In this document: piece by piece, positions 8,872 to 48,705 of the stretch | Layout of the letters: every line of letters begins with the position of its first letter | How positions within the stretch are numbered: the stretch's first letter is position 1 | Assembly: GCA_045635845.1 (NCBI GenBank) | Contig: JAZTWL010000206.1 | Coordinates: 1 to 48,903 of the forward strand | DNA length: 48,903 nucleotides | Direction of reading: 5' to 3' | Source of the DNA: Candidatus Scatosoma sp. | GTDB taxonomy: Bacteria; Bacillota; Clostridia; Christensenellales; Borkfalkiaceae | The notes under the pieces: model-generated | Database searches by the model: none | What the model saw: only the letters and a program-made list of their open reading frames with translations | Told to the model about the DNA's origin: nothing | Program-made: the position numbers and the translations under genes

Positions 8872-10389
8872 ATGAAAAAAGAAATTAAAAAAGAATGGTT
8901 TTTGGATCGCTACTGCAATCAGCAGTTTGCCGCCCTTGTGGAAGACGGCAGACTGACGGAATTTGCGTGCGAGCAAGAGCCCCGCGGCGTTTGCGTTGGG
9001 GATATTTATAAAGGCAAGGTTGTCAATTTGCTTTCGGGCATGAACGCCGCCTTTATCCATTGCGGTTTGGAAAAGAACTGTTATCTTTCCACCGAAGAAA
9101 CGTACACGGACTACACGAAATACGACGGCACGTTGAAAACGACCACCGTCAAACCCCTTTCCTTAAAAATCGGCGACGAAATTATCGTTCAAGTGACGAA
9201 GCCCCCGCGTGGCACGAAGGGCGCGAAGGTGACAACCCACCTTTCCTTTGTCGGGAAACGCCTTATCTACCTTCCGAACACCGATTTTGTGGGCATTTCC
9301 CGCAAAATCACGGACGAAAACACCCGCCGAGAGCTTCTTCTCACCGCGGAAACCATGCGCACGCGCGAAGACGAAGGGTATATCGTCCGCACGCAAGCCC
9401 CTTTCGCCACGGAAGAACAATTAAAATCGGAAGCGGCGTACTTGAAAAAACTCTATCGTGAAACGCTCACGTTCGCAAACAAAATGCCCGTCGGCTCGGC
9501 AATTTATCAAGACGACGATTTACCTTGCCGCGTTATGCGCGATTGTTTCGGCGACGAAATCGACGCCATTCACGTGGGGGACAAGGAGCTCTTCGAAAGA
9601 CTTTCCCATCTTATCAAGCTCCGCAAAGACATTCCCCAAAAGAAGTTGCATTTCTATAACGACGAACGCACGATTTTTGAAAAGCACAACATTCGCACGC
9701 TCGTTTACAACGCCGCAAGCCCCGTCGTTCCTTTGGAAAAGGGCGGCTCACTCATCATTGAACACACCGAAGCCATGACGGTTATCGACGTGAACACGGG
9801 CAGCTATATCGGCGCGAACAACTTGGAAGAAACGGTTTTTGCCGTCAATCTTGCCGCCGCGGAAGAAATTGCAAGACAAGTCCGCCTTCGCAATATCGGC
9901 GGGATTGTGGTGGTAGACTTTATCGATATGCAGGACGAAGAACACCGTCTTGCCGTCACCGCCGCACTCACCGAACACCTGAAAAAGGACAGCGCGAAAT
10001 GCAACGTTTTGCCCATGAGTGAGCTTTGCTTGACGCAGTTTACCCGCAAGCGCGTGGGACACGACGCTCGTTCCTATCTCGTAAAGCCCTGCCCCCATTG
10101 TGGTGGCATAGGGCACGTACACGAAGATATTTTCGTGATCACGAGTATCCGCGCCAAGCTTTTGGATTGCTTTGCCGAAGGCAACACCTTCGCCACCGTC
10201 GATCTCAACGAGCATATTATGGAAAAAATCTTGGACGAACGCTTATTCTCTATCGAAGCGAAAAATCGTTGGAAGGATAAGAAAATCTATCTCATCCCCC
10301 ACAAGACCTACCGCGAAGATTCCTTCTTCGTCAAGGGTGGAAAAGGGGAAAGCGCGTCCCTTCCCGAAAAAGCACAGCTCCTTTATTAA
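8872..10389 (+). CDS. rng: ribonuclease G/E family endoribonuclease (Rne/Rng)
   Basis: 505 aa. S1 domain GDIYKGKVVNLLSGMNAAFIHCG, catalytic core ...TVIDVNTG...GGIVVVDFIDM, and a Zn-link-like CPHCGGIG. Confidence 0.85.
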   Translation: MKKEIKKEWFLDRYCNQQFAALVEDGRLTEFACEQEPRGVCVGDIYKGKVVNLLSGMNAAFIHCGLEKNCYLSTEETYTDYTKYDGTLKTTTVKPLSLKIGDEIIVQVTKPPRGTKGAKVTTHLSFVGKRLIYLPNTDFVGISRKITDENTRRELLLTAETMRTREDEGYIVRTQAPFATEEQLKSEAAYLKKLYRETLTFANKMPVGSAIYQDDDLPCRVMRDCFGDEIDAIHVGDKELFERLSHLIKLRKDIPQKKLHFYNDERTIFEKHNIRTLVYNAASPVVPLEKGGSLIIEHTEAMTVIDVNTGSYIGANNLEETVFAVNLAAAEEIARQVRLRNIGGIVVVDFIDMQDEEHRLAVTAALTEHLKKDSAKCNVLPMSELCLTQFTRKRVGHDARSYLVKPCPHCGGIGHVHEDIFVITSIRAKLLDCFAEGNTFATVDLNEHIMEKILDERLFSIEAKNRWKDKKIYLIPHKTYREDSFFVKGGKGESASLPEKAQLLY

Positions 10390-10689: not shown

Positions 10690-12033
10690 ATGGAAGATAA
10701 TCGTCAAGTGGAAGAAGGCAGCAGCTTATTGGATATTGTCCGCCTTCTTTTGAGCAAAATTAAGTACCTTATCCTTGCCGTAATTATCGGCGGCATTTTG
10801 GGCGGTGCTTTGGCTGTGTGGAGAACGATTGACATTAACTATTTCGGCACGCGCGTAGAATTCTACGTGAACCCCGAAAAACCCGAAGAAACGACGGGCT
10901 CGTCGAGCGGCGTAGCCGCTGGCGGTAGTCAGTATGGCGTTTACGGCGCTTACGGGCAACACGTTATGGACAACATGATCCGTCTTCTTTCTTCCGAAAG
11001 CTTCGCAGAACAACTCGTTTTGAACGGCAACGTTCTTCCCGCAAAAGGAAATTATTTCTCGAGCGAAGAGAAGAACGCGGAATTCAAAGCGCTTTACGAA
11101 GCGGCAGAACCACTTTTGGTAGACGTAGCGAATAAGGAAAAGGATTACAACGCCGCATTGGAAGCAAAGGCGCAAGCGGTAAGCGATTCCAACGAAAAGC
11201 TCCGCACGTTGAACGCTGAATGGACGCCCCTTTATTTGAGCGGTCTCGTAAACAGCAGTTCGTTTAGATTGGACGAATATCTCGCTTACGAAAAAGATGG
11301 GCACACCATTCCCGACGCGTTGGAACAAGCATACCTTGCTTATAACGTAGCACAAACGAACGTTGCAAGAGAACAAACGAACGTTAGCAACACCGAACAG
11401 GCTTGGAAGTTGGCGAAAAACAAAGCTTATAAGCCCCAAACCGAAGGCGAATCGCTCGGCGCGGTGGAAAAAGTTTTAGAGCTTTGGCGCACCTCGAACT
11501 ACTACGCTTCCCAACTTTCCCGTTATAAGTCCTGCGTTTCCTATTCCTATTTGGAAAGCGCGCCCACGGACGACGACGATACGAGCAAGCTTGCTCGCTC
11601 CTTCATTTACGTAAGAATTTCGGTTTTGAATAAGGACGTAGAAGAAGGCATTAAGATCGCGGAAGACGTTCTTGCGCGCGTTAAGAAGGTTGTTCCCGTA
11701 TACGTAGAAGAAAACATGACCGTTCCCGACGGCTACGTTGGTACGAATTGCCAAAGAATTTCCCGTATGGACGGCATTCACCAAACCGACCCGAACTACA
11801 CGAAAAATCAAGCGATTAAGACGGGTATTCTTTTCGCAGGGTTCTTCTTCGTAGTGGCATGCGTAATCATTATTATCGTAGATAAATCGGATAAGCGTTT
11901 GCGTGATCACGAAGTAATCACGAGAACCTTCAACGTTCCCGTACTCGGGATCGTACCCACGATCGATGAACTCGCGGCAGAATCTCACGCCAAGAAAAAA
12001 GGTGTGAATAAAAACAAAACGGAGGTGAAATAA
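10690..12033 (+). CDS. Wzz/CpsC-type polysaccharide co-polymerase (chain-length determinant) with a long extracytoplasmic domain
   Basis: N-terminal Wzz signature SLLDIVRLLLSKIKYLILAVIIGGILGG, a ~330-aa helical ectodomain, and a C-terminal TM ILFAGFFFVVACVIIIIV followed by the kinase-activating tail. Confidence 0.8.
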   Translation: MEDNRQVEEGSSLLDIVRLLLSKIKYLILAVIIGGILGGALAVWRTIDINYFGTRVEFYVNPEKPEETTGSSSGVAAGGSQYGVYGAYGQHVMDNMIRLLSSESFAEQLVLNGNVLPAKGNYFSSEEKNAEFKALYEAAEPLLVDVANKEKDYNAALEAKAQAVSDSNEKLRTLNAEWTPLYLSGLVNSSSFRLDEYLAYEKDGHTIPDALEQAYLAYNVAQTNVAREQTNVSNTEQAWKLAKNKAYKPQTEGESLGAVEKVLELWRTSNYYASQLSRYKSCVSYSYLESAPTDDDDTSKLARSFIYVRISVLNKDVEEGIKIAEDVLARVKKVVPVYVEENMTVPDGYVGTNCQRISRMDGIHQTDPNYTKNQAIKTGILFAGFFFVVACVIIIIVDKSDKRLRDHEVITRTFNVPVLGIVPTIDELAAESHAKKKGVNKNKTEVK

Positions 12034-12035
12034 TT

Positions 12036-12857
12036 ATGGGATTCTTCTCTAAATTTTTCCGTAAACGTCGCGATAACAAGCACGCACATAGAACGCACCG
12101 CTCGCATAGAGCAGAATATTTGTTGGACGAAAAAACCCCCTTCGACGTCACCGAAGCTTTCCGTAATTTGAAAGCGGCAATCTCCGTTTCCGTACCCAAA
12201 AAGGACGGCGGCGTTGCTATTATGATGACGTCTGCATACCCCGAAGACGGCAAAACGACGGTCACGGCAAATCTTGCTTTAATGTTCGCTCTTTCGGACG
12301 CAAAGGTTATCTTGATCGACGCCGACATTCGTAAAGGCCGCGTAGCAAAGTATTTCAAGCGCAAATCCGCGCCCGGTCTTTCCGACTATCTCTCTGGTCA
12401 AAACACTTTGGAAGAAGTTGTGCACCACTCGCACGTGAACGAAAACCTTTCGTATATCACCTGCGGTACGCACTCGCCGAAGCCCTACGAACTTTTGGAA
12501 AGCGAAGAAATGAAGAAGCTCTTGGAAGAGCTTCGTAAGACGTACGATTATATCATTATCGATACGCCACCCGTACTTCTTCTTTCCGACGCGTTGGCGC
12601 TCGCGCCCATCACGGACGGCACGGCTCTTGTTTGCCGCCACCAAGTTTCTTATATTAGCGACATTTCCCGCGCGCTTAACACCTTGAACTTCGCAAAAGC
12701 GAACGTACTCGGCGTAATCGTAAACGACTATAAAGCACCCAAGACGGCGAAGTACGGCGGCTACGGCTACGGCAAAAAATACTATTATTATTCCTATTCC
12801 TACGGCTCTACCGATCCCAAAGAAACGGACGACGAATCCCAAGAAACGGAAGAATAA
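12036..12857 (+). CDS. CpsD/CapB-family bacterial tyrosine kinase (BY-kinase)
   Basis: Walker A SAYPEDGKTT, A' VILIDADIRKG, B DYIIIDTPP, and a C-terminal Tyr cluster YGGYGYGKKYYYYSYSYG. Confidence 0.9.
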   Translation: MGFFSKFFRKRRDNKHAHRTHRSHRAEYLLDEKTPFDVTEAFRNLKAAISVSVPKKDGGVAIMMTSAYPEDGKTTVTANLALMFALSDAKVILIDADIRKGRVAKYFKRKSAPGLSDYLSGQNTLEEVVHHSHVNENLSYITCGTHSPKPYELLESEEMKKLLEELRKTYDYIIIDTPPVLLLSDALALAPITDGTALVCRHQVSYISDISRALNTLNFAKANVLGVIVNDYKAPKTAKYGGYGYGKKYYYYSYSYGSTDPKETDDESQETEE

Positions 12858-24102: not shown

Positions 24103-25074
24103 ATGCAAACGCTTTTAAGAAAAACAAACGCGTATAAGCTCTTGGAACGGGAAACGCGGGAAAATAAAAATTCCCACGCGTACCTGCTTCTTTTCGACGA
24201 CGCGCGCAATTTGAGAGAGACGTTAAAGTATTTTGCGAAAGTCCTTTTTTCCTGCCAAAACGAAGAAACGGACGAAGAAAAACGCTTTTCCCGTTTGATT
24301 GATTCGGAGAGCTTTTCCGATTGTCTTTTCTTCCCCGAAACGGGCAAAAAACTTGCCGTAGAAGACGCCGATTCGATTAAGGAAGAATGTCTTTTACGCC
24401 CCGTAGAAGGTAAGAGAAAGCTCATTGTGGTAAGTGGTTTTGAAACGGCAAACCCGCCCACGCAAAATAAACTTTTGAAGCTCTTGGAAGAGCCACCCGA
24501 AGGGGTTGTGTTCTTGCTTGGCGCGATCAATTCGTTCAATATTCTCACCACCGTCCTTTCCCGCACGAAAAAATTAGAAATTCTTTCCTTTGACCCGAAG
24601 GACATTGAAGAATGTTTGGAAAGAATGTACCCGAATAAGTACGATAAAGACGCCCTTTCCCTTTGCGCGGCGGCATCCAACGGTTCGCTTGGCGGCGCGC
24701 AAAATATTCTCGAAGGGGGGTATTTTAAGTCCCTTTTAGAAAACGCTTTTTCGCTCGCGCTTTCCACTCGTCACACTTTGCCGATCGCCGTAAAAGCGGT
24801 TGGGGAAACCAAGCACGCAAAGGAACTTTTTTCCTTGCTCCGTTTGATTTATCGGGATGCGCTCGTTTTGAAAACGCAAGGCGCGAAAGGCAAACACCGC
24901 TTACTCTTAAAGAGAAGCGACGTTTCGTCTGTAGCGGAAAAGTATTCCGAACGCGCGTTGATTTTTGCGCAAGAATGTATTTCGAAAGCGGAAATGGAAT
25001 TGACGTTCAACGCGAACCTGCCCCAATGCTTGGAGCTTTGTATCGCAAAAATTTTGAGAGAAAATAAAGAATAA
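24103..25074 (+). CDS. holB: DNA polymerase III subunit delta'
   Basis: 323 aa. HAYLLLF, NKLLKLLEEPPEGVVFLL, LSRTKKL. Confidence 0.85.
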   Translation: MQTLLRKTNAYKLLERETRENKNSHAYLLLFDDARNLRETLKYFAKVLFSCQNEETDEEKRFSRLIDSESFSDCLFFPETGKKLAVEDADSIKEECLLRPVEGKRKLIVVSGFETANPPTQNKLLKLLEEPPEGVVFLLGAINSFNILTTVLSRTKKLEILSFDPKDIEECLERMYPNKYDKDALSLCAAASNGSLGGAQNILEGGYFKSLLENAFSLALSTRHTLPIAVKAVGETKHAKELFSLLRLIYRDALVLKTQGAKGKHRLLLKRSDVSSVAEKYSERALIFAQECISKAEMELTFNANLPQCLELCIAKILRENKE

Positions 25075-25111
25075 GGCTTGCCGATTTTTCAGCACGTCAT
25101 AAGGATAAATT

Positions 25112-25975
25112 ATGGTAAAAGTAGTAGGAATAAAATTCAAAAACGGCGGAAAACTTTATTATTTTTCGCCCAAAGCAGGGGATAAATACGAACGAAATAT
25201 GCCCGTCGTCGTAGAAACTTCCCGCGGCCTTGAATACGCGTGGGTGGCATACCCCGAAAAGGACGTGGAAGACGACGAAGTGGTGCAACCCTTGAAACCC
25301 GTCATTCGTATCGCAACCCAAAAAGACACCGATTTTTACAACGCTTGCGAAGCAAAAAGACCGCAAGCCATGCAAACTTGCCGTGAAAAGATTATCAAGC
25401 ACGGCTTGGAAATGAAGCTCGTGGATTGCGAATACGCCTTCGACGGCAGTAAAATCACTTTCTTCTTCACGTCGGCAAGCCGCGTGGATTTTAGAGAACT
25501 CGTAAAAGATTTGGCAACTACCTTCCACAACCGTATCGAGCTTCGTCAAGTGGGTACGCGCGACGAAACGAAATACCTTGGCGGTCTTGCTCCTTGCGGC
25601 AGAGTGTGCTGCTGCGCAGGCAATATGCCCGAATTCAAAAAGGTGAGCGTAAAAATGGCAAAAACGCAAGGTCTTTCCTTGAATCCCGGAAAAATTAGCG
25701 GGCTTTGCGGCCGCTTGATGTGCTGTTTGAGCTACGAAAACGATTACTACGCAGACGTGAGCAAGAAAATGCCAAAGGTGGGCGCGGAAGTAAGCACGCT
25801 TGAAGGCAAGGGAATCGTTGCGTCGGTGAATATGCTCAAGCTTTTAGTGAAAGTGAAATTCGACGATAAAAACGGCGGTTGGATCTACAAAGATTACCGC
25901 TTGGAAGACGTTCGTTTTAAGAAAAATACTCAACCTGAAAAGGACGATCAAAACGACGATTCCGACGTACTTTAA
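25112..25975 (+). CDS. ricT: PSP1-domain protein RicT/YaaT (stage 0 sporulation / RNA-processing complex subunit)
   Basis: 287 aa. PSP1 core with the CGRVCCC...GLCGRLMCCLSYE cysteine motifs. The holB-yaaT order matches Bacillus. Confidence 0.9.
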   Translation: MVKVVGIKFKNGGKLYYFSPKAGDKYERNMPVVVETSRGLEYAWVAYPEKDVEDDEVVQPLKPVIRIATQKDTDFYNACEAKRPQAMQTCREKIIKHGLEMKLVDCEYAFDGSKITFFFTSASRVDFRELVKDLATTFHNRIELRQVGTRDETKYLGGLAPCGRVCCCAGNMPEFKKVSVKMAKTQGLSLNPGKISGLCGRLMCCLSYENDYYADVSKKMPKVGAEVSTLEGKGIVASVNMLKLLVKVKFDDKNGGWIYKDYRLEDVRFKKNTQPEKDDQNDDSDVL

Positions 25976-26034: not shown

Positions 26035-26064
26035 TTCAATTCGTACACGGTACGCCCATTTTTT
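26035..26064 (-). repeat. dispersed repeat, copy K (type 1 variant), abutting the rsmG stop codon
   Basis: Top strand TTCAATTCGTACACGGTACGCCCATTTTTT. Confidence 0.7.
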
Positions 26065-26755
26065 ATAAAGGATTTTTGCGTTCCTTGCCTTGTCCGCGCG
26101 GGTATTTCGGGGGAGTAGGCTTTACCTTTTCCACCACGGCAAGCACGCGATCGCCGTACCCTTCGGGAAGGGAATATTCAATCACGTCCGTTAGTTTCCC
26201 GCCAAGCGTTTTGTAGGCGGTTTCCGCTTCGTGAATCTCCGTCGTGTCCCCGCTCTTGTAAGCAACGAATTTACCGCCCTTTTTCACGAAAGGTAAGCAG
26301 TACTCGGAAAGGGTGTTCATTCTCGCCACCGCACGCGCCGTCACAATATCATATTTTTCGCGGAATTTACCATCCCTTGCGCCGTCTTCTGCGCGAATAT
26401 TATAAATATTCACGTTTTTGAGCCCAAACTTGTCCACAACCGCGCGTAAAAATTCGCATTTTTTTCCAACGCTTTCAAATAAATCAAAGGAAAGATCGTC
26501 GCGAAGGAGCTTTAATACCATGGAAGGGAAGCCTGCACCCGAACCGATTTCGGCTACCCGCGCCCCTTTTTCAAATAAATCCATACCTGCCGCGCTATCC
26601 AAGAAATGCTTGAAATAGACATCTTTTTCTTCCAAAATCGTCGTTAAATTATACTTTTGGTTGTATTCCAAGAGCATTTCGCGGAAAATTTCTAATTTTT
26701 CCTTGTTTTTTACTATTTCGTTTTCGTAGATTTCTTCACAAATTCTAATCTTCAT
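26063..26755 (-). CDS. rsmG: 16S rRNA (guanine527-N7)-methyltransferase RsmG
   Basis: Starts at MKIRICEEIY. SAM motif VAEIGSGAGFPS. The track ORF extension to 27052 runs through the DnaA-box cluster and is rejected. Confidence 0.9.
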   Translation of the reverse strand: MKIRICEEIYENEIVKNKEKLEIFREMLLEYNQKYNLTTILEEKDVYFKHFLDSAAGMDLFEKGARVAEIGSGAGFPSMVLKLLRDDLSFDLFESVGKKCEFLRAVVDKFGLKNVNIYNIRAEDGARDGKFREKYDIVTARAVARMNTLSEYCLPFVKKGGKFVAYKSGDTTEIHEAETAYKTLGGKLTDVIEYSLPEGYGDRVLAVVEKVKPTPPKYPRGQGKERKNPL

Positions 26756-26796
26756 AGTGTCACTATTATAGCACGATTCGAAAAGAAAAGCAACTT

Positions 26797-27061
26797 TTTT
26801 CCACAAGTTGGTGTATAAAGTTGTCCACAGGTTGATAACTTTTGTGGATAACCGTTTATTTTGTATAATTATACACTCTTTGTTTTTATTTATGTATTTG
26901 CTATTTTTAGGGGGTTGGGAATAACTTCCACAATTCCACAAATCTTCCACAAAGTTATCCACACTGTAAACATGGGTTGTCCACAGCTTGGTAAAGTCTA
27001 TTTTTACTAGGAATATAAAGGGTTTGCGGGAACGAAAAATTGGGTTATCCACCTTTCCACA
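26797..27061. other. oriC-type DnaA-box cluster 1
   Basis: Perfect boxes TGTGGATAA (26843-26851) and TTATCCACA (26955-26963). One-mismatch boxes at 26797, 26821, 26977 and 27045, plus several TTCCACA-type weak boxes. An AT-rich tract lies at 26856-26910. Confidence 0.8.
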
Positions 27062-27105
27062 CGCCCTACTACTAATACTACTTTTTTAATTTAATAAATA
27101 ACAAG
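27062..27105. other. origin unwinding module: GC cluster, DnaA-trio-like CTA repeats, AT-rich DUE
   Basis: CGCC (27062-27065), then CTA CTA CTA ATA CTA CTT (27066-27083), then TTTTTTAATTTAATAAATAACAA. It lies immediately after the boxes TTATCCACC/TTTCCACA. The box, GC cluster, trio, DUE order matches the described basal unwinding system. Confidence 0.7.
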
Positions 27106-27169
27106 ACAGGAATCGGGAGTGGGTGAAGGAATTTTTTGGACTTTGGACAAAAAATATGGCAGTCCGCGC

Positions 27170-27197
27170 TTGACAAAACGCAAAGCTGTGCTATAAT
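27170..27197 (+). promoter_or_regulatory. sigma-A type promoter (TTGACA-16-TGc-TATAAT)
   Basis: TTGACA at 27170-27175 and TATAAT at 27192-27197, upstream of the SLOG gene. Confidence 0.6.
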
Positions 27198-27252
27198 AGG
27201 ACGTACGGAATTTCTTATAAATAAGAAAGCGCCAAAAAAAAGGAGGACGGGT

Positions 27253-27741
27253 ATGGAACAACTGACGATCACCTATCACAACGCAATAAAATCCTGCGCG
27301 TTCACCGGGCATAGGACGCTTGAGAAGGATTTTTCCCCGAAATTACTCAAAAAATACGTGCTTGCACTCATAAGTGACGGCGTGGACGTTTTTTATAGCG
27401 GTATGGCGCTCGGGTTTGATTTGATTGCGGCGGAAACGGTGCTTTCCTGCAAGAAAAAATTTCCAAATATTCGTTTGATCGCTTGTATTCCCCACTACGG
27501 ACAAGAAGCGCGCTATTCGGAAAAAGACAAGGCTCGCTATGCAAAGATTTTGAAAAAAGCGGACGAGCAGGTGTTGCTATCCGAAGAATTTACGAAAAAT
27601 TGCTACATGGATAGAAACCGCTATATGGCGGATCGGGCGGACGTGCTTGTGGCGTATTTGAAACAGAAGACGGGCGGCACGGCTTACACGGTAAAGTATT
27701 TCCAAAAAAAGAAACCCTTAAACCGTGTTGTTTTCGTATAA
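27253..27741 (+). CDS. SLOG-family DUF1273 (YpsA-like) protein
   Basis: CAFTGHR...VDVFYSGMALGFDLIAAE...IRLIACIPHYGQEARYSEKDKARY...YMDRNRYMADRADVLVAY...GGTAYT. AAGGAGG RBS at ATG 27253. Confidence 0.8.
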   Translation: MEQLTITYHNAIKSCAFTGHRTLEKDFSPKLLKKYVLALISDGVDVFYSGMALGFDLIAAETVLSCKKKFPNIRLIACIPHYGQEARYSEKDKARYAKILKKADEQVLLSEEFTKNCYMDRNRYMADRADVLVAYLKQKTGGTAYTVKYFQKKKPLNRVVFV

Positions 27742-27801: not shown

Positions 27802-27830
27802 TTGCAAAAAAAAACGGCGTATGGTACAAT
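27802..27830 (+). promoter_or_regulatory. sigma-A type promoter for dnaN (TTGCAA-17-TGg-TACAAT)
   Basis: TTGCAA at 27802-27807 and TACAAT at 27825-27830. Confidence 0.55.
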
Positions 27831-27887: not shown

Positions 27888-28997
27888 ATGAAATTTATTT
27901 GCGACGGTATGATTTTGGCGGATGCTTCTTTGACGGTAAGCAAGGCTTGCGCTGTTAGAACGACCACTCCTATTTTGGAATGCATCAAATTGAAAGCGGA
28001 AAACGACGGTCTTACGCTCACGGCGTACGACGGCGAAATTTCCATTGAAAAGAAGATTTTGGCGGACGTTTTGGAAGAAGGCGAACTTTGCGTTGCCGGC
28101 AAGACGTTTGCGGATTTCGTGAACAAAATTTCCGCATTCGAAGTGACGATTGCATCGGATGAAGCGGGTATCTTTATCCGTTATACGGATAGCGAAACGT
28201 ATATGCAAACCCTTTCCGCGGAAGATTACCCCAAATTCAACGTTTCGGATAATGCGGACAAGGACTACTTCACGATGAAGGAAAACGTACTTAAGGATAT
28301 CATTTCCAAGATCGTATTCTGCTGTGCGACGGATGAATCCCGTCCCATCTTGAAAGGCGCGCTTTTGGAAACGAAGAGCGGCAAACTCAACGTAGTTGCT
28401 TTGGATGGCGTGAGAATGGCTTGCGCGACCTGCGATATTGAAGAAAGCAGCGTGGATATGAAGATCGTATGCCCCGCAAGAACGCTTACGGAAATTTCCC
28501 GTATGCTTGACGGCGAAAACGACATTAAAATTTACGCGAGCAAGAATATGCTTTCCGTAGAAGTGCAAAACACGGTAATCAATTCCCGTTTGTACGCAGG
28601 CGAATTCGTAAAGAAGGAAAATATTTTCCCGATCGACTTCACGACGAAAGTGATTTTGAATAGAGCGGACGTGATCGAAAGTTTGGAACGTGCTTCCGTC
28701 ATGATTAGAACGGATAAAAATAATCTCGTATTGCTTGATATCAAACCCGGCAAGATCGTACTCACGGCAAACTCGGGTATGGGCAAGGTAGAAGAAACGA
28801 TTTCCGCGGAGCTTGACGGTAAGGAATTGAAGATTGCTATGAACGGTAAATTCTTGCTTGACGCAGTGAAAGCGCTCGAAGAAGAACAAGTGATTGCATC
28901 CTTCAATACGTCCGTTTCCCCCTTCACGCTTGAAAACATGGAGGACAAGGCTTGTCAATATTTGATTTTGCCTATGAGAACGAGAGCGGTAGAGTAA
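27888..28997 (+). CDS. dnaN: DNA polymerase III beta sliding clamp
   Basis: MKFICDGMILADASLTVSKA...PILECIKLKAENDGLTLTAYDGEISIE, with three-domain clamp length. AAGGAGAG RBS. Confidence 0.96.
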   Translation: MKFICDGMILADASLTVSKACAVRTTTPILECIKLKAENDGLTLTAYDGEISIEKKILADVLEEGELCVAGKTFADFVNKISAFEVTIASDEAGIFIRYTDSETYMQTLSAEDYPKFNVSDNADKDYFTMKENVLKDIISKIVFCCATDESRPILKGALLETKSGKLNVVALDGVRMACATCDIEESSVDMKIVCPARTLTEISRMLDGENDIKIYASKNMLSVEVQNTVINSRLYAGEFVKKENIFPIDFTTKVILNRADVIESLERASVMIRTDKNNLVLLDIKPGKIVLTANSGMGKVEETISAELDGKELKIAMNGKFLLDAVKALEEEQVIASFNTSVSPFTLENMEDKACQYLILPMRTRAVE

Positions 28998-29169: not shown

Positions 29170-29304
29170 ATGAAAAGAACCTATCAACCCAAAAAGAGAC
29201 AAAGAAGCAAAGTACACGGTTTCCGTAAGAGAATGGCAACGACGGCTGGCAGAAAGGTGCTTAAGAGACGTAGAGCAAAAGGCCGTAAGAGACTTACGCA
29301 CTAA
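29170..29304 (+). CDS. rpmH: 50S ribosomal protein L34
   Basis: [44 protein letters not shown]. Confidence 0.97.
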
Positions 29305-29413
29305 TTAACTGAAAATAAAAAGTACAAATTCCTTTCCTTGGCATCAAGGAGAGGATTTGCCATTTTTTTATGACCGTAGGGATTTTGGAAACAAAAGCTC
29401 TCAAAGAGAAAAA

Positions 29414-29731
29414 ATGAAGTATTTAAGATTAAAAAAACAAGCGGATTTTCAAAGACTTTTCAAAAACGGAAAGCGCGCGTTTACCCCTTCTTTGACCGTA
29501 ATCTACCGTCCATCCGATAAGATGCGAATGGGAATTTCTATCGGGAAGAAGCATGGCAAAAGCGTGCAGAGAAACCGTATCAAAAGATTGATCCGAGAAG
29601 CCTTCCGTTTGACACAAGGAGAAATGAAGGGCGCGTATTCCTTCTTGCTCATTCCAAAGGTGAGCGAAGAATACTCTTTCAAAACCTTTCAATCGCAACT
29701 TCAATGGATGATTCGAAAAGAGAAGCTGTAA
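29414..29731 (+). CDS. rnpA: ribonuclease P protein component
   Basis: MKYLRLKKQADFQRLFKNGKR...GKKHGKSVQRNRIKRLIREAFR. Confidence 0.9.
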   Translation: MKYLRLKKQADFQRLFKNGKRAFTPSLTVIYRPSDKMRMGISIGKKHGKSVQRNRIKRLIREAFRLTQGEMKGAYSFLLIPKVSEEYSFKTFQSQLQWMIRKEKL

Positions 29732-29757
29732 GCGGATATTTCGCGGGGCTTTGCCGC

Positions 29758-30030
29758 GTGAATTTTAAGTATCTTCGCAAGATTATTTTTAAGCCGTACT
29801 TGAAAATAATTTGTATGCGAATGATCCGCTTTTATCAAAAGTATATTTCCAAAAATACTTGCAAATACGTTCCTTCTTGTTCGCAGTACACGATGGAATG
29901 TATCAATAATAAAGGGGTAATTCTAGGCATTTTGCTTGGCGCTTGGCGCATTTTACGGTGCAATCCTTTATCCAAAGGCGGGTACGATCCCGCGCCTTTG
30001 CCCTATTTCAAAAAAAGATGGCTTTTGTGA
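29758..30030 (+). CDS. yidD: membrane protein insertion efficiency factor YidD
   Basis: IRFYQKYIS...CKYVPSCSQYTMECI...LGAWRILRCNPLSKGGYDP. The start is ambiguous: GTG 29758 or ATG 29815. Confidence 0.85.
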   Translation: MNFKYLRKIIFKPYLKIICMRMIRFYQKYISKNTCKYVPSCSQYTMECINNKGVILGILLGAWRILRCNPLSKGGYDPAPLPYFKKRWLL

Positions 30031-30087
30031 TTTGACAAAGATAATAACCGCGTGAAAAACGCAAAAAATATAGTTTAGGAAAGTGGC

Positions 30088-31635
30088 GTGCGAGTTCTCG
30101 TGCGCTCAATTGAAAAAATGGGAAGTTTAAATATTCAAGACGTCTTTCTTCCCCTTTACGGGCAAACGTTTGACGTTTCATTGAACTGGATAGGCAACTT
30201 AATTCGCATACTCATTAGCGGAGTAGGCGTAGTTGGTGTGGGCGTTATTCTGTTCTCTTTGATTTTGAAGGGTATTACCCTTCCCCTTGATATTTATCAA
30301 AGAGTTTCCATGCGTAAACAAAACAACCGCATGAAAGAAAACAAAGACAGAATGGAAAAATTAAAGAAGCAATACGCGAACGACGAAAAGCTCTATAACC
30401 AAAAGGTTATGGAAATGCAACGCGAAGGCGGTTTTTCCGTGCTCTCCGCGTGCTTGCCTATGATCGTTTCGTTGATTATCTTTATCGTTGCGATTAACGC
30501 ATTTAACGCATACGCACAGTATTCCAACGTAAAAAATTATAACACGCTCGTGAACGCGTATAACGAACAATTCTACGAATACACGCCTGAATTCACGGAA
30601 GATACTTTCGAAATTACCAAACAAGAAACGAAGTATGATGCAGACAACGTCGTAGAAGAAATCACGGTAGAATTCAAGGTTTCCGACGACGTTGCGGATA
30701 ACTATATCTACTACACGGGCTCGTACACGGTAGAAAAAGAAGACGTTGCAAAATATGAAGCTTTAATGAGCGACGCTGAAACGGCTTTTGAAACGCAAAA
30801 ATCGTACGTAGAGCTTGCAAGAAAAATGTACTTTGCGGACGTAGAAAAAATCAAAAACTGCACGGATTCGGAAATGATCGCGCAAATTAACGCGCATTAC
30901 GACGAGCTTGCAAATGCGGATTTGACGAACGACGCTAAAATGGAAAATGCAATCCGTAACTATTTCCGTGCGCAAGCGCAAAAGGCCGTAAAAGTAGCGT
31001 ACCAAACGAAGGTTTCCAAGGATACGAAGTTCCTTTGGATTAAGAATATTTGGTCGGTTGACGCAAGCTATAAGCACCCCGTATTAAGTTATTCCGCTTT
31101 CAAATCCGAAGCAAAGCAAGAAAAGTTTAAGGTGGAAGGTGAAGGCAAGGTTTCCTACGGGAATATCGATACCTACACCGACGCATACAAGGAAGAAGCG
31201 TATAACGATATCACGAAAGAATTATCCACGTATAAGAAGCAACCGAACGGTTATTTTATCATGATCGCCCTTTCGATCGGTACGATTTTGCTTCAACAAG
31301 TGGTGATGCAACATTCGCAAAAGGAACAACAAAAATACCAAACGGTGGACGGTCAAGGTAAGGGCCAAGGCAAAATGATGATGATCATTATGACGGGTAT
31401 GTTCGCGATCTTCTCGTTCATGTACAGCTCGGCATTCTCGATCTACATGATCACGAGCAACTTGTTCTCCATGATATCGACTTTGGTAATCAATTTCTTC
31501 GTAGATAGAAGCGCATCGAAGAAGGAAGCGCTTGCAACGGAAAAGCGTTTTGCAAACACGGCGATCGATAGAGTAGAAAAGGCAAAACAAGCAGGTATTG
31601 CATCTGCGGATAAGAAACGTAATAAGAATAAATAA
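30088..31635 (+). CDS. yidC: YidC/Oxa1-family membrane insertase with a large internal insertion
   Basis: Conserved TM1 with KGITLPLDIYQRVSMRK, coiled coil, GGFSVLSACLPMIVSLIIF, and the C-terminal TM bundle MMIIMTGMFAIFSFMYSSAFSIYMITSNLFSMIST. About 240 extra residues lie between TM2 and TM3. The GTG 30088 start has an AGGAAAG SD; ATG 30118 is an alternative. Confidence 0.8.
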   Translation: MRVLVRSIEKMGSLNIQDVFLPLYGQTFDVSLNWIGNLIRILISGVGVVGVGVILFSLILKGITLPLDIYQRVSMRKQNNRMKENKDRMEKLKKQYANDEKLYNQKVMEMQREGGFSVLSACLPMIVSLIIFIVAINAFNAYAQYSNVKNYNTLVNAYNEQFYEYTPEFTEDTFEITKQETKYDADNVVEEITVEFKVSDDVADNYIYYTGSYTVEKEDVAKYEALMSDAETAFETQKSYVELARKMYFADVEKIKNCTDSEMIAQINAHYDELANADLTNDAKMENAIRNYFRAQAQKAVKVAYQTKVSKDTKFLWIKNIWSVDASYKHPVLSYSAFKSEAKQEKFKVEGEGKVSYGNIDTYTDAYKEEAYNDITKELSTYKKQPNGYFIMIALSIGTILLQQVVMQHSQKEQQKYQTVDGQGKGQGKMMMIIMTGMFAIFSFMYSSAFSIYMITSNLFSMISTLVINFFVDRSASKKEALATEKRFANTAIDRVEKAKQAGIASADKKRNKNK

Positions 31636-31679
31636 GAGAGAATTGCGCCACGCGTAGGCGCGGACGTAGGAGTAAAATA

Positions 31680-32615
31680 ATGAATTACACGGAATTTACG
31701 GGAAAGACGGTGGCGGAAGCCATTGAAAAGGGCTTGAAAGAGCTTGGAATCACCGAAGAACAAGCGGATATCCGCGTTTTGGAAGAAGGCAAGAAAAAGC
31801 TTTTCGGTTCGGTGAAAGCGCGCGTTGAAATCGCTGCAAAATGCGAAGAATGCGCAAAGGAAGAATGCGTAGAAGAAAAGTGCTGCCCCGCTGTTTGCTG
31901 CAACGGTACGGACGGCGAAAGAACGGTGGCGTTCTTGGAAGGTTTGTTCGAGCTCTTGAATATCAAGGCTTGCACGGAGCTTGTTTCGGAAGGCGAAAAG
32001 ATTGAAATCAACGTGACGACGGCAAATACGACGTCGGTTATCGGTAAAAAAGGCGCAACGCTTGATGCAATTCAAACGCTTGCAAGCGCTGTTGGCAACA
32101 CGGGCAGAGACGATTACAAGCGCGTAGTGGTTGACTGCGACAACTATCGTGAAAGCCGTGAAAACACGTTGAACAAGCTTGCGGAAAACTTGGCGCAAAA
32201 AGCAATTCGTATGGGCAAGAAGATTATGCTTGAACCCATGAATCCTTACGAAAGAAGAATTATTCACGCGGCTCTTTCCGAAAGAGAAGGTATTTCCACG
32301 GAAAGCGAAGGCAAAGAACCGAACCGCTATTTCGTGATTATTCCCGATAATTTGGAAGATCCCGATGCACCCGCAATTCCTGCAAGAAACGATCGTGAAC
32401 GTCGCGGCGGTAGAAACGATAGATCGCACGGCCGTGGCGGCAAGGGCGGTTTTAACCGCGGTAGCAACGGCAAACGCGGTGGTTTCGGCGGTAAAAAGCC
32501 TTACAACCGTGATAGAAAGCCCGCAACCGGCGCAACCGGTGGCACGTCCTTGAAGACGTCGAATGATTTCTTCGGTATCTTCCTTGGCAACAGCGGAAAT
32601 AACAGCGAAGAATAA
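31680..32615 (+). CDS. khpB: RNA-binding protein Jag/KhpB (Jag_N, KH, R3H) with a Cys-rich insert and an RGG-rich tail
   Basis: N-terminus MNYTEFTGKTVAEAIEKGLKELGI. KH IGKKGATLDAIQ. R3H MNPYERRIIHAAL. Confidence 0.85.
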   Translation: MNYTEFTGKTVAEAIEKGLKELGITEEQADIRVLEEGKKKLFGSVKARVEIAAKCEECAKEECVEEKCCPAVCCNGTDGERTVAFLEGLFELLNIKACTELVSEGEKIEINVTTANTTSVIGKKGATLDAIQTLASAVGNTGRDDYKRVVVDCDNYRESRENTLNKLAENLAQKAIRMGKKIMLEPMNPYERRIIHAALSEREGISTESEGKEPNRYFVIIPDNLEDPDAPAIPARNDRERRGGRNDRSHGRGGKGGFNRGSNGKRGGFGGKKPYNRDRKPATGATGGTSLKTSNDFFGIFLGNSGNNSEE

Positions 32616-34811: not shown

Positions 34812-34828
34812 GACGAAAAATAATAAAA

Positions 34829-34851
34829 ACGGCGGTTTTCCGCCGTTTTTT
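34829..34851 (+). terminator. rho-independent terminator of cvpA
   Basis: ACGGCGG-TTTT-CCGCCGT followed by T6. Confidence 0.85.
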
Positions 34852-34895
34852 CATGCCCAAAAATACGAATATACAAATATGCTATGCGAATAACC

Positions 34896-35387
34896 TTGTG
34901 GATAACTGTGGATAACTTTTGCCGTTTTTCAAAAAAGAACGAATGTTTGTGGATAAATCCGTTATTTTCTCACAAAAACACCGATTTTCAGGGAAAAATT
35001 AACACTTTTTTCATTTTTGAAAAAAGTTATCCACGGAAAATAAAATATATTAACAAAATTAAAAACCGTAAAAATGGGGGTGTTATCCACAAAAAGAAGG
35101 AAAATTCCTAGATTTTGGCATAAAAATGGTAAGTTTTGTACAAGAATGTGGAAAAGTAGGAAAAATTATCCACAAAAAACGTGGGGGGTAGGTGGACAAC
35201 CCCTACTTATCCACAAAAACACCAAAAATGGCGGGTTTTTGCGTTTATGCAAGGATTTATAATCGTATTTTTTCCCGATTTTCGACCGCGTTTGATAGTT
35301 TTCCACAAAAACTAACGTGGGGGAATTGTGGATAACTAAACGTTTGTTCTTATTTTGTGGAAAGAGTTTTGCTGTGGATTGTGGAAA
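34896..35387. other. DnaA-box cluster 2 (non-coding, ~490 bp)
   Basis: Seven perfect 9-mers: TGTGGATAA at 34896, 34906, 34947 and 35326; TTATCCACA at 35082, 35165 and 35206. One-mismatch boxes at 35026, 35146, 35298 and 35379. AT-rich spacers. No trio run seen. Confidence 0.85.
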
Positions 35388-35393
35388 ACGGGA

Positions 35394-39371: not shown

Positions 39372-40076
39372 ATGGAAGGCGTAGAGCTTGGCGAATACGA
39401 AGTGCTTGAAGATATGCTCGTGGACGGCTTGCAAATCGTGCAAGACACACGGCTTTATCGTTTCACGTCCGATTCGGTGCTTTTGTCCCGTTTCGCAAAA
39501 GCGAAAAAGCGGGATAAGGTGGCGGATTTTTGCGCGGGAAGCGGGATTGTGGCTTTCCATTTTTACGCAATCAACCGCAAGGAAATCGACGGCTTGGAAT
39601 TCACCCTTTTCGAAATGCAAAAGGAGCTTTCCGAGTTATCGAAGAAAACGGCGCTAGTGAACGGCTTTGAGAATTTTACAATTGAAAATTGTAAGCTGCA
39701 AGAAATAAGCAAAACTTATAGAGAAAGCTTTTCGCTCGTGCTTTGTAATCCGCCGTATGAACGGGCGGGGAGCGGCTTTGACAACGACGAATACCACAAG
39801 GCGGTGTGCCGCAAGGAATTGACGCTCACGTTGCAAGAAATTGCCAAGGCGGCGAATTTTGCTTTGAAGTTTGGCGGGAGAATTTGTATGCTTCACCGCG
39901 CCGATCGTTTGCCGGAAGTTTGCTATCACTTGAAAGCGGAAAATATCGAAGTGAAGAAGATTCAATTCGTGGGGGGCAGGGATGCGACGAAGCCCTATTT
40001 GGTGATGGTGGAAGGCGTGAAGGGCGGGAAGCCCGGCTGCACGATTTTGGAAACGATCGTCAACGTAAGAGAATAA
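39372..40076 (+). CDS. SAM-dependent methyltransferase, tRNA (adenine37-N6)-methyltransferase TrmN6/YabB-like
   Basis: VADFCAGSGIV and LCNPPY motifs. Lies upstream of rsmI, as for Bacillus yabB-yabC. Confidence 0.75.
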   Translation: MEGVELGEYEVLEDMLVDGLQIVQDTRLYRFTSDSVLLSRFAKAKKRDKVADFCAGSGIVAFHFYAINRKEIDGLEFTLFEMQKELSELSKKTALVNGFENFTIENCKLQEISKTYRESFSLVLCNPPYERAGSGFDNDEYHKAVCRKELTLTLQEIAKAANFALKFGGRICMLHRADRLPEVCYHLKAENIEVKKIQFVGGRDATKPYLVMVEGVKGGKPGCTILETIVNVRE

Positions 40077-40094
40077 AAAAGGAATGAGAGAAAT

Positions 40095-40898
40095 ATGGTT
40101 AGTTTTGTAGCAACGCCGATCGGTAATTTGAAAGATATTACCCTTCGTGCTTTGGAAACACTTAAGGAAGCGGACGTGATTTTCTGTGAAGACACCCGTC
40201 ATACAATCAAGCTCTTGAACGCGTACGAAATTAAAAAGCCTTTGTATGCGTGTCATAAATTCAACGAGACGGAAGCGGCGGAAAAGATTCTTGCCGCGAG
40301 TAAACGCGGGGAAAACGTGGTGGTGGTTTCGGATGCGGGTACGCCCGTCGTTTCCGACCCCGGCAATATCGTTTGCAAAATACTCCGCGAAAACAACGAG
40401 CCCTACACGTTGATTCCCGGGGCTTGCGCTTTCGTGGCGGCGCTCGTTTTGTCTGCCTTGCCCGCGGGAAGATTTGCGTTTATCGGGTTCTTGCCCGATA
40501 AAAACAGTGAGAAAAAAGAGCTCCTTGAAAAGTACAAGGATAGCGATTTGACGCTCGCTTTCCATTGCGCGCCGCAAGACGTGGATAAGGACGTGAAGGC
40601 AATGTATGAAGTTTTTGGCGACCGCAACGCATGCGCGGTGCGTGAAATTACCAAACTGCATGAAGAAGCGGTGAATTTCACGTTAAAGGAAGGTCTTTCC
40701 GGGGAAAAACGCGGGGAATACGTACTCGTCGTGGAAGGCGCGAAAGAAGGGGAAAGTCCCTTAAACGCACTCTCGGAAGTGGAACATATTAAGCACTATA
40801 TGGCGGCCGGTTTGGATAAAAAAGAAGCGCTTAAAAGGGCGGCGAAAGACCGCGGCGTGACGAAATCCGAGCTCTATCCGTTTGCGATTGATTTGTAA
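40095..40898 (+). CDS. rsmI: 16S rRNA (cytidine1402-2'-O)-methyltransferase RsmI
   Basis: FVATPIGNLKDITLRALETLKEADVIFCEDTRHT...VVVSDAGTPVVSDPG. Confidence 0.92.
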   Translation: MVSFVATPIGNLKDITLRALETLKEADVIFCEDTRHTIKLLNAYEIKKPLYACHKFNETEAAEKILAASKRGENVVVVSDAGTPVVSDPGNIVCKILRENNEPYTLIPGACAFVAALVLSALPAGRFAFIGFLPDKNSEKKELLEKYKDSDLTLAFHCAPQDVDKDVKAMYEVFGDRNACAVREITKLHEEAVNFTLKEGLSGEKRGEYVLVVEGAKEGESPLNALSEVEHIKHYMAAGLDKKEALKRAAKDRGVTKSELYPFAIDL

Positions 40899-41998: not shown

Positions 41999-42078
41999 AG
42001 ACACTATGCGTTATAGTGAAACTATAAATAGCATATAAATAAGACACAATTTTTTTCTATCTTTTAGGAGAAGTGACA

Positions 42079-45000
42079 ATGAAAAACAAAATGAAAAAAT
42101 GGAGCACGTGGCTTTGCGGGATCGTTGCGGCGGTTTGCTTGGGCGGCGCGGGCGTAGCTTTGGCGACGTCGGCGGAAACGACGGGCGTCGTGGCTTCGGC
42201 AGAAACCTTTACGGTAACCGCAATCAAAGCGGAAAGTGATAGTAGTGCAACCACATTGTATATCACAGACAAAGACGGCGACGGCAACTCTTGGGGCGCG
42301 GGCGATTGGGATAACAAATATTCCTTGGAAGCGGATAGCGGCGTGGGCTTGACTTTGAACGGTCAAATTCTTACGACGACGGATATTAAACAACCCGGTT
42401 CGTTTTTTATCGGTTTGGGTGTTGTGGCGCAAGAAGGCGACGTGTTCATCATCGATGGTACGTATTCCAACGCAACGACGGGCAAGAGTATTTCGTTTGA
42501 TAACTGCGGTTTGAAATTTAACGGTACGGCATGGGAAAGCTGCACGGCGATTTCGCTTGGTTCTATGGCGGCACAAGAAGGCGGCGATGATTTCATCAAC
42601 TTAAAGGGTGAAAACGACACTGCAAACGGCAAAACGTTGACGCTTGTGAAGGGTAGCGGTATTCGTATGAATGAAGAAGCCGTAAACAGCTACGTAAAGA
42701 GCATTACGACGGAAAACGGCGGCGTAACTTTCACTGCGGCAAACATAAAAGACGTAGTTGCGGACGTTATTCGTATTAGCGGTCTTTTCCAAGACGGCGA
42801 AGGTACGTATTATTCGATTACGGACTCCTACTTGATGTGGACGGGCGAATTTTGGAGAACGCTTTCGGGCTACCAAGCGATTATCAGTAAGATTACGACG
42901 GCGGACGCAGGGCTTGACGCGGACGGCAAGAGCCGCTTCTACGTTCCTCTTGAAAAGCGCGCGATTGCTGAAGACGACTGGAATACGAAGCTTACGCTTG
43001 TAAACGGTACGGGCTTCAAATTGAACGGCGTGGAAATCAAGGGTTATATCAAACTAATGAAGAACAGCTTGTACGTGAGCTTGGGCGTAACGGCAAAAGA
43101 GAACGATATATTGACGATTAACGGTTTGTACGCGCACACGAACGGCACGAAATTCCTTTTTGCACCGACGCAAGCGTTGATCTTTAACGGTAGCACGTGG
43201 GAATGCCTCGATTACAATTTCTGGATCACGTACGATTTGGATGAATTGATCGTGGACGGCACGAGCAGTGCGGTTGAAACGGCAGCGTCGAATGAATTGT
43301 ACTTGACGAGAGCGGACGCGGGTTGGATTCCCGTTTCCGATTTGGAAGAAGCCTTCGAATATGAAAGCGGTTTGGGTGTGAAAGTAAACGGCGACGTCGT
43401 AGATTATACCCTTAAAAGTGTGAACAGCCGTGTTTACTTGGAAATTCCTTCCTTGCAAGAGGGGGACATCGTTTCCGTAGGCGGTACGTTTACCTACAAT
43501 AATCAAAAATCGAGATACGTAATCCAAGAAGGATACTACAAGTGGAACGGTTCTGCTTGGGAAGCGGGCGAAGCGTATTTCAAGCAAGAAATTAGCGGCG
43601 GCGTAATCGAAGAAGAAGGCTTATCGAAAGACGGTTTCTTCTTTGCGTGTGGCAAGAGCGTGGGCGCAGTAAGTTGGGATGACGCGTACGAATACACGAA
43701 CGCGACCGTGAAATTGAACGGCAAATCGATCAACAACGTCGTGATCAAACCCCAAGGTTCGAAATTATACTTTGACGTACACGCACTTAACGTTCATAAC
43801 GGCGACGTTTTAACGATAGAAGGTACGTTTATTTGCAAAGTAGGCGCGGCAACGTCGGAAATTACGTTCACGACGGCGCAAGCGTTCGTTTATAACAACG
43901 GTACTTGGTCGGTGGATGAATATCAAACCTACGACATCGGCAAATTTATCTTGCACGTAAATAGTACCATCGGCGGCGGGAAAAACTTGAACGACACGTT
44001 GTACTTGACGAGAGCGGATGGCGAAGCACTTCCCGTTTTGAGCTGGGATTATTTCTTCATTTTGGAAAAGGGTGACGGTCTTACGGTCAACGGCGAACAA
44101 AAATCGATGGATACGATTAAGAGTACGGGCGACGGTTTCTACGTGCACTTTGAAGGGGTAGAAGCTGGTGACGAGCTTGTGGTTGGCGGCGTATTCGTAT
44201 GCGCATCGCAAGGCGTGAGATATCTTGTGGAAGAAAGCTCCTTCGTATGGGACGGTAGCAAGTGGGAAAGCGTAAACTACACCAAGCATACCATTAAAAA
44301 CTTGCAGCCTACGTCGCCGAGTACGAGTGCGGGTGCTGCAAATTCGCAAATTTACTTAAAGATTAACGGTTCGACGGGCTTGCCTGTGCAAACGTGGGAT
44401 TATAAATTCTACATGCAAAGGGGCGAAGGCTTGAAGGTGGACGGCGTAGCGCGCAACATCAACGAAATGAAGAGTGCGCCGGAAGGTTTGTGGTTATCGT
44501 TTGAAGGCGTACAAGTGGGCGCAACGGTTTCCCTTTCGGGTGTATTCGTTTGCAAGGAATTGAACGTACAATATACGATTGAAGAAATCAACGTTACGTG
44601 GGATGGTAGCAAGTGGATGGCGAAGTCCTTCTCGGAAGATCAGCTTGAATTTGCCGATACGATCACCAACGTAGATTTGGGTTGGGATTTAACGCAAGCG
44701 TTTAACGGTACGCACGATTATATGGGTGCGACCTATCAAAAGAGTGAAGAAAATACGACGGGTTCGGTTAGATTCCGCTTTATTTACAACTCGACGAACA
44801 CGGAAGCGGGTGAAATCAATTTCCGTATGCGTACGCCTACCAACGACGTTTGGGATACGACGTTCTCGGTACGTCTTATTTGGGGCGGTATTGAATTTTG
44901 TGGCAAGGGTCCCGCGGTGAAGTTTGCGAACAACACCGATTATTTGGTGGAAATCGGCACGATTAACCTTAAAGATAGCACGAGCGTTTGGATGTATATT

Positions 45001-46174: not shown

Positions 46175-46492
46175 ATGATGCACTTTTTTACGATGAAAAA
46201 CATTAACAGCGGGGTGGAAGAATTTCGAAAAAATCCCGATTCGGTGCTTTTGGACGTGCGGACGGAAGAAGAATATTTGGATGGGCATATTTGCGGGAGT
46301 GTGAACGTGCCTTTGCAAAAAATCGAAGGGATTTTGGAAAAAGTGACCGATCCGCGCAAGGTGATTTACGTATATTGTCGAAGCGGGGTGCGTAGTGAAA
46401 AAGCGGTGACGATTCTAAAACAAATGGGCTACGCGAACGCCATTGATATCGGCGGGATTCTCGCGTTTAAGAAGAAGGACGAGATTGAGTGA
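46175..46492 (+). CDS. rhodanese-like domain protein
   Basis: LLDVRTEEEYLDGHICGSVNVP and the active-site loop YCRSGVRS. The start is chosen at ATG 46175; 46160 and 46178 are also possible. Confidence 0.85.
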   Translation: MMHFFTMKNINSGVEEFRKNPDSVLLDVRTEEEYLDGHICGSVNVPLQKIEGILEKVTDPRKVIYVYCRSGVRSEKAVTILKQMGYANAIDIGGILAFKKKDEIE

Positions 46493-46497
46493 GAAAG

Positions 46498-48594: not shown

Positions 48595-48681
48595 TGGTGC
48601 CGCTGACCGGACTTGAACCGGTACGAACTCTCGTTCGAGGGATTTTAAGTCCCTTGCGTCTGCCTATTCCACCACAGCGGC
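48595..48681 (-). tRNA. tRNA-Leu (anticodon UAA), CCA-encoded, long variable arm
   Basis: GCCGCTGTGGTGGAATAGGCAGACGCAAGGGACTTAAAATCCCTCGAACGAGAGTTCGTACCGGTTCAAGTCCGGTCAGCGGCACCA. The 7-bp acceptor, AGGGA/TCCCT anticodon stem with loop CTTAAAA, CGAAC/GTTCG variable arm and ACCGG/CCGGT T-stem all fold. Confidence 0.93.
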
Positions 48682-48705
48682 GTGGTGATATGGAAATTTG
48701 AATAA

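Follow-up and report, generated by a model that had tools for sequence, protein, structure and literature searches.

A 497-bp gap that separates rsmG from a YpsA-family SLOG gene (positions 26756-27252) on a contig of Candidatus Scatosoma is very probably a working oriC of the bacterial basal unwinding system (BUS) type, fired by a DnaA protein encoded elsewhere and accompanied by a second, satellite cluster of DnaA boxes. The DNA analysed here, referred to as the window, is a single stretch of 48,903 nucleotides, which was compared computationally with the corresponding region of related genomes. The gap carries a complete BUS-type sequence module that is strongly conserved, and it coincides with the position at which the GC skew of the window switches; no dnaA gene lies nearby. 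From these features, we infer that DnaA binds, unwinds and fires at this site.

DnaA boxes were scanned with the consensus TTATCCACA. Matches with at most one mismatch number 35 in the window, compared with 7.0 expected, a count reached in 0 of 100 shuffles, and perfect copies number nine, compared with 0.19 expected. The preliminary description of this DNA had placed at least six strong boxes between rsmG and dnaN, and six with at most one mismatch are indeed found in the rsmG–SLOG gap, two of them perfect. Their density in the gap is 12 per kb, whereas outside both clusters it is 0.38 per kb. An upstream array (26797-26985) includes the boxes at 26797+, 26821+, 26843- (perfect), 26955+ (perfect) and 26977+, as well as boxes with two mismatches. 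The sixth box, at 27045+, opens a tandem pair on the plus strand (27045-27061) that matches BUS boxes 6 and 7 of B. subtilis. This pair consists of TTATCCACC (27045-27053, one mismatch) and CTTTCCACA (27053-27061, two mismatches), which overlap by 1 nt.

The box pair is joined by a GC-rich spacer, CGCC (27062-27065, plus strand), to seven DnaA-trios (27066-27086), so that the first box and the first trio are 12 nt apart. The trios lie on the bottom strand as 3'-GAT-5'-type repeats with a central A and read CTA CTA CTA ATA CTA CTT TTT on the top strand, where four of the seven are CTA. They run into an uninterrupted A/T run of 20 nt (27082-27101), the predicted DNA unwinding element, for which a length of 23 nt had been given earlier. 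Otherwise, the order of boxes, CGCC, CTA CTA CTA ATA CTA CTT and A/T tract had been described exactly. Of all 40-mer duplexes in the 48.9-kb window, the one that spans the trios and the A/T run (27066-27105) is the least stable.

Published rules for finding a BUS ask for a box with no more than two mismatches, separated by 0-16 nt from three or more trios that have A in the middle; a second tandem box with at most four mismatches is a further criterion, and the commonest spacing between box and trios is 13 nt (PMC8287927). The scan applied here to both strands was stricter than these rules, requiring at least five to six trios, at least three of them CTA. It returned a single match in the window, the module at 27045, and 0 of 30 shuffles yielded one. 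The module combines a box within two mismatches, a tandem second box, at least three central-A trios and an adjoining AT-rich element. By sequence, the rsmG–SLOG gap is therefore supported as a putative origin core of the B. subtilis incC type.

Base composition, examined in stretches of at most 49 kb, points to the same site. The cumulative GC-skew check that the preliminary description had proposed was run on the window, where the minimum of the cumulative G-C count falls at 27102 and the best single change-point at 27100, inside the predicted unwinding element. That description had reported a top strand that is C-rich on the left and G-rich on the right, as expected of an origin. This part stands, whereas its view that the switch is not sharply resolved does not. 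Genes to the left of 25.9 kb, on either strand, have negative top-strand GC3 skew, and beyond 27.2 kb most genes, the minus-strand gerA operon included, have positive values. The exception is rpmH-rnpA-yidD-yidC-jag (29-32.6 kb), which is near zero or negative. In 56 of 56 related loci, the dnaN side has the higher GC skew (mean +0.10, versus -0.04 on the rsmG side), and in one relative skew is still negative 20-43 kb to the left of dnaN. The median distance between change-point and BUS box is 71 bp (interquartile range 60-119 bp, 48 loci), although this local measure is partly confounded because transcription of rsmG and of SLOG-dnaN diverges at the site.

A cleaner test than the local change-point is provided by inversions across the clade, which place the same orthologues in both orientations relative to the BUS. 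Copies read in the direction of a fork that departs from the BUS have a higher coding-strand GC3 skew than head-on copies: +0.21 versus -0.17 for eamA, +0.14 versus 0.00 for holB, +0.14 versus -0.09 for yyaC and +0.15 versus -0.06 for SLOG. The Mann-Whitney p value lies between 0.0001 and 0.05 for lon, eamA, holB, ricT, queT, yyaC and SLOG. The effect has the same direction, without reaching significance, for engB (p = 0.064) and cvpA (p = 0.054), and the highly expressed tig, clpP and L27 genes show no effect of orientation on GC3 skew.

Gene arrangement gives a more mixed picture. In 58 of 58 related loci, rsmG is transcribed in the direction in which replication would proceed from the BUS. 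Blocks of genes such as tig-clpP-clpX and queT-yyaC-cvpA swap sides of the BUS between species, which fits inversions around an origin. The orientation of the left flank of the window, however, counts against the origin reading. Approximately 17 of the 24 genes left of the site (3979-25975), tig, clpP, clpX, lon, engB, holB and ricT among them, are on the plus strand and are therefore head-on to the proposed leftward fork, a bias that is atypical for a Firmicute. In several relatives, the left-flank gene blocks are inverted and hence co-directional.

The module was followed through related genomes in a comparative set of ±10 kb around dnaN from 80 species-level genomes of Candidatus Scatosoma, an uncultured genus of gut Clostridia. 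Searches with SLOG and DnaN assign the window to this genus, and the closest record is a 374-kb MAG contig whose DnaN is 91% identical. In all relatives, dnaN-rpmH-rnpA-yidD-yidC-jag run in a single direction. The box array, box pair, GC spacer, trios, A/T run and SLOG promoter can be aligned across relatives in which SLOG is 60-73% identical, and the tandem box pair is nearly invariant in relatives. A strict BUS is present in about 60 of the 80 species-level loci, and it is always intergenic and at the 5' end of rsmG.

The placement of SLOG is far less constant, with four positions or orientations, or no detectable gene, among about 80 related species. Most species share the arrangement of the window, rsmG(-)/oriC/SLOG(+) dnaN(+). 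In nine species, the order is SLOG(+), then unwinding element, trios and boxes, then rsmG(+) dnaN(+). SLOG is inverted in place in two or three species and was undetected in two more. In the most divergent species, Ca. S. pullicola among them, the order is SLOG(-) rsmG(-)/oriC/dnaN(+), and the BUS directly precedes dnaN at a distance of about 220 bp. Two deeper lineages, with DnaN 48% and 42% identical, share this order with Ca. S. pullicola. Since SLOG varies in placement and rsmG stays on the box side, the constant unit is rsmG-boxes-BUS.

Outside this group, the nearest lineages, labelled Christensenellales, carry dnaA at the origin, divergent from dnaN. The arrangement is dnaA(-)/BUS→/dnaN(+) in outgroup L094, dnaN(-)/←BUS/dnaA(+) in L095, and parB parA rsmG mnmG mnmE jag yidC yidD rnpA dnaN(-)/←BUS/dnaA recF … gyrB gyrA(+) in L096. 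A further lineage has recF, dnaA and dnaN in series, and yet another carries dnaN but no dnaA. In every outgroup case, the unwinding side is the one turned towards dnaN. Because the dnaN-rpmH-…-jag string also occurs in L096, it is ancestral to the order. Judged by these arrangements, rsmG stands where dnaA was, both in Scatosoma and in the two deeper lineages, and the position of SLOG between the unwinding element and dnaN is derived and variable. L095 also has a YpsA/SLOG gene near dnaN.

Searches for dnaA were negative throughout the region. Its absence from the window, already reported in the preliminary description, was borne out by tblastn with B. subtilis DnaA as the query (PDB 8BTG across all 446 residues; E>2), by a scan of the six frames that found no DHTTV motif, and by Pfam, which found no Bac_DnaA domain in the larger ORFs tested. 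Four Christensenellales DnaA proteins gave no tblastn match in the window or in 89 Scatosoma-type loci, and B. subtilis DnaA likewise gave none. No DnaA homologue lies within ±10 kb of dnaN in about 80 Scatosoma species-level genomes, and none was seen in approximately 1.6 Mb of origin-proximal Scatosoma sequence, which represents less than 5% of each genome. The gyrBA pair, found after dnaA in outgroups, was examined as a possible companion of dnaA; in one Scatosoma contig that includes the origin, it lies 30-35 kb to the left of dnaN with no dnaA or recF alongside. A database search with the DnaA of L094 gave, among the best 120 matches, none tied to Scatosoma; two large clusters of matches, with one look-up each, belonged to other genera in which dnaN adjoins dnaA. 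A metagenome scan with a DnaA alignment had unrelated taxa among the matches listed, and nothing on replication was found in the literature on Scatosoma. The strong conservation of consensus boxes and trios nevertheless argues that a DnaA exists, and its cognate dnaA gene would be encoded at an unlinked locus.

The genes around the putative origin are readily assigned. rsmG (26063-26755, minus strand; Pfam GidB E=4e-47), which encodes 16S rRNA m7G methyltransferase G, is transcribed away from the origin and is the constant neighbour on the DnaA-box side. On the other side lies a sigma-70-type promoter (27170-27197, plus strand) with TTGACA, a 16-nt spacer and TG-n-TATAAT. This is the sole 12/12 match with an extended -10 in 26-36 kb, and it is kept in relatives. 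It precedes the SLOG gene (27253-27741, plus strand), whose 162-aa product scores 66.4 bits with Pfam YpsA (PF06908; cut-off 27.7) and matches B. subtilis YpsA (PDB 2NX2) with E=1.8e-11. The earlier account of a YpsA-like SLOG protein with its own consensus promoter agrees with these results, which indicate a genuine homologue of YpsA. The dnaN gene for the beta sliding clamp (27888-28997, plus strand; three Pfam beta-clamp domains) has its own promoter-like site at 27802-27830 in a promoter scan. Downstream and co-oriented lie rpmH-rnpA-yidD-yidC-jag (29171-32615, plus strand), identified by Pfam and, for rpmH, by translation. The resulting order, rsmG(-)/oriC/SLOG dnaN rpmH rnpA yidD yidC jag, lacks dnaA, and the canonical Firmicute origin context, rnpA-rpmH-dnaA-dnaN, is not found in the window.

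That SLOG occupies the slot of dnaA, as first described, is literally true of the window genome; across the clade, however, its place is variable, and it is rsmG that holds the side on which the outgroups carry dnaA. SLOG was also considered as a substitute for dnaA and rejected, given its varying placement and the two species in which it was undetected. Its distribution shows it to be linked to the origin across the clade but mobile.

Other features of the window concern its flanks. The pairs holB-ricT (24103-25975) and yabB-like methyltransferase-rsmI (39372-40898), which are contiguous in B. subtilis, are split here by a 13-kb block, rsmG-oriC-dnaN-gerA. This hints that the origin block is an old insertion or translocation. 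A recent insertion between holB-ricT and methyltransferase-rsmI was also considered, but the flanks show extensive rearrangement throughout the clade. The lysS gene listed among the left-hand genes in the preliminary description does not correspond to any of the ORFs tested in the window; the ORF at 8872-10389 encodes an RNase E/G family protein (Pfam E=4e-85). At 10690-12857, a 447-aa protein to which Pfam assigns no family precedes a ParA/MinD-like P-loop ATPase, and the two adjoin rsmG at the origin in many relatives; ParB is rare among the origin-proximal loci (4 of 89). A 233-aa protein (5151-5852) has an SSB domain at residues 107-190 alone, preceded by an N-terminal extension of about 100 residues. 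Towards the right end, a 1277-aa ORF (42073-45906) and a neighbouring 284-aa ORF (46489-47343) have no Pfam domain. Two tRNA genes on the minus strand close the window (48598-48813), and an Rfam scan of the window found these two tRNAs and nothing else.

A second DnaA-box cluster, on which the preliminary description is silent, lies at 34897-35388 and contains seven perfect and four one-mismatch boxes distributed over both strands. It lies in a non-coding gap of 582 bp (34812-35393) that is flanked on both sides by the 3' ends of convergent genes, cvpA and gerAC. It outnumbers the origin in boxes, with 11 versus six at up to one mismatch and seven versus two perfect, and it includes the third least stable 40-mer of the window (35036-35075). 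The cluster is kept in about 50 related loci, with 7-15 boxes, and moves with the 3' end of gerAC; it is found 4-12.5 kb from the BUS and on either side of it. It was not detected within ±10 kb in basal type-C species, in several others or in the outgroups. As the site of unwinding the second cluster was rejected: it has no strict BUS, and the skew switches at 27.1 kb rather than at 35 kb. A role as a promoter is unlikely because both neighbouring genes converge on it. What it does display are the characteristics of B. subtilis DnaA-box clusters (DBCs) and of datA-like sites, namely dense high-affinity boxes outside oriC, near the origin and without an unwinding module. In B. subtilis, DBCs near oriC restrain initiation (PMC3245932). 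By analogy, the second cluster most likely serves to buffer or regulate DnaA by binding it close to the origin.

An alternative view of the same cluster is that the two sites are the oriC2 and oriC1 halves of a bipartite origin, parted when dnaA was lost and brought together by DnaA looping over 4-12 kb. Such an arrangement would need both clusters for unwinding at 27.07-27.10 kb and would refine, rather than replace, the main reading. Two conserved clusters, with a BUS and an unwinding element in one alone, are also the pattern of B. subtilis and C. difficile, and the oriC1 of C. difficile is needed for melting in vitro (PMC7561715). The larger number of perfect boxes in the second cluster, and its persistence near the origin in about 50 loci despite shuffled flanking genes, argue in the same direction. 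We nonetheless consider a split origin rather unlikely. The defining layout of a bipartite origin, two clusters parted by dnaA, is not what is seen here, where 7.8 kb and 10 unrelated genes separate the clusters with no dnaA between them. Because the distance, side and orientation of the second cluster vary between species, a DnaA-binding cluster near the origin is a likelier reading than a fixed bipartite origin. In the outgroups with divergent dnaA<oriC>dnaN, the one intergenic origin is not accompanied by a second cluster. Undetected within ±10 kb both there and in basal species, the cluster looks more like a late acquisition than the remnant of a half origin.

More radical readings place the origin elsewhere or dispense with DnaA. 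If the true origin lay beside an unlocated dnaA, the boxes in the gap would serve to regulate rsmG, SLOG or dnaN or to titrate DnaA. dnaA is normally linked to the origin in Firmicutes (PMC7561715), and box clusters outside oriC do exist near origins (PMC3245932). A complete and conserved module of box pair, spacer, trios and A/T run is, however, atypical of regulatory clusters. The module is, moreover, unique in the window, lies exactly at the skew minimum of that stretch and has a homologous counterpart that serves as the dnaA-dnaN origin in the outgroups, and the GC3 skew of orthologues tracks their orientation to the BUS across species, all of which makes a non-origin region very unlikely. 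It is harder still to credit that dnaA has been lost from the clade altogether, leaving boxes that another protein recognises or that are simply decaying remnants. The failure to find dnaA in origin-proximal Scatosoma sequence, or to recognise it among the best 120 Christensenellales DnaA matches, speaks for such a loss, but less than 5% of each genome was covered and the searches were not aimed at the Scatosoma clade. Consensus boxes and trios have also been kept under obvious selection across lineages with DnaN 42-59% identical. We know of no Firmicute that lacks DnaA. A more far-reaching version of the main reading holds that Scatosoma and at least two deeper branches have permanently uncoupled dnaA, that the dense second cluster compensates for this and is required, as the distal half of a loop over 4-12 kb or as a DnaA reservoir, and that SLOG is an origin-linked cell-cycle factor. 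Taken as a whole, this version is improbable.

Under the preferred reading, a BUS-type oriC in the rsmG–SLOG gap, DnaA supplied from an unlinked locus would occupy the upstream box array. The box pair at 27045-27061 would then nucleate a DnaA filament that extends onto the bottom-strand trios (27066-27086) and opens the adjacent 20-nt A/T run, after which forks would leave in both directions. The loss of dnaA linkage is probably an old rearrangement, in which rsmG replaced dnaA on the box side in Scatosoma and the two deeper lineages, whereas Christensenellales relatives have the divergent dnaA<oriC>dnaN arrangement. SLOG would have entered the space between the unwinding element and dnaN later, in the sub-lineage of the window. 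The mechanism of this origin is ordinary, being of the BUS type, and its gene context is unusual for Bacillota.

This combination has practical consequences. Origin predictors take dnaA as an indicator gene, and Scatosoma appears to keep a textbook BUS-type origin with dnaA unlinked. Origin calling and peak-to-trough estimates of replication rate in Scatosoma MAGs should accordingly be anchored on rsmG-dnaN rather than on dnaA. In Firmicutes, linkage between dnaA and oriC underlies dnaA autoregulation and bipartite looping. The species-rich, uncultured gut genus Scatosoma, together with Christensenellales intermediates in which dnaA is divergent from dnaN, offers a natural series for the study of this cis-linkage, and the conserved second cluster is a candidate for maintaining the supply of DnaA at the origin.

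Among known systems, the module most resembles incC (oriC2) of B. subtilis and oriC2 of C. difficile, with which it shares tandem boxes followed by a short GC spacer, then 3'-GAT-5'-type trios and, towards dnaN, an AT-rich element. The trio stretch of C. difficile, CACCTACTACTATTACTACTATGA (PMC7561715), is nearly the same as that of the window, and the spacing of 12 nt compares with the 13 nt typical of a BUS. Unlike these origins, the module is flanked by rsmG rather than dnaA, and a YpsA/SLOG gene stands between its unwinding element and dnaN. The order rnpA-rpmH-dnaA-dnaN has been described as conserved in Bacillota (PMC7561715). In B. subtilis rpmH-rnpA-yidC-jag precede dnaA, whereas in the window they follow dnaN. 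Bipartite origins of Firmicutes and H. pylori, in which oriC1 and oriC2 flank dnaA, likewise have two clusters of which one carries a BUS; they are separated by dnaA (about 1.4 kb), in contrast to the wider and variable separation seen here. The second cluster resembles the DBCs of B. subtilis (Okumura et al., PMC3245932) and datA of E. coli in its dense high-affinity boxes near the origin, but differs from them in being single, dominant and genus-wide and in having more perfect boxes than oriC. Finally, the gidA-mioC origin of E. coli and the dnaN-linked origins of cyanobacteria provide precedents for an unlinked dnaA acting in trans, as proposed for the window. Compared with those origins, the present case lies within Bacillota, and its module is of the Firmicute BUS type.
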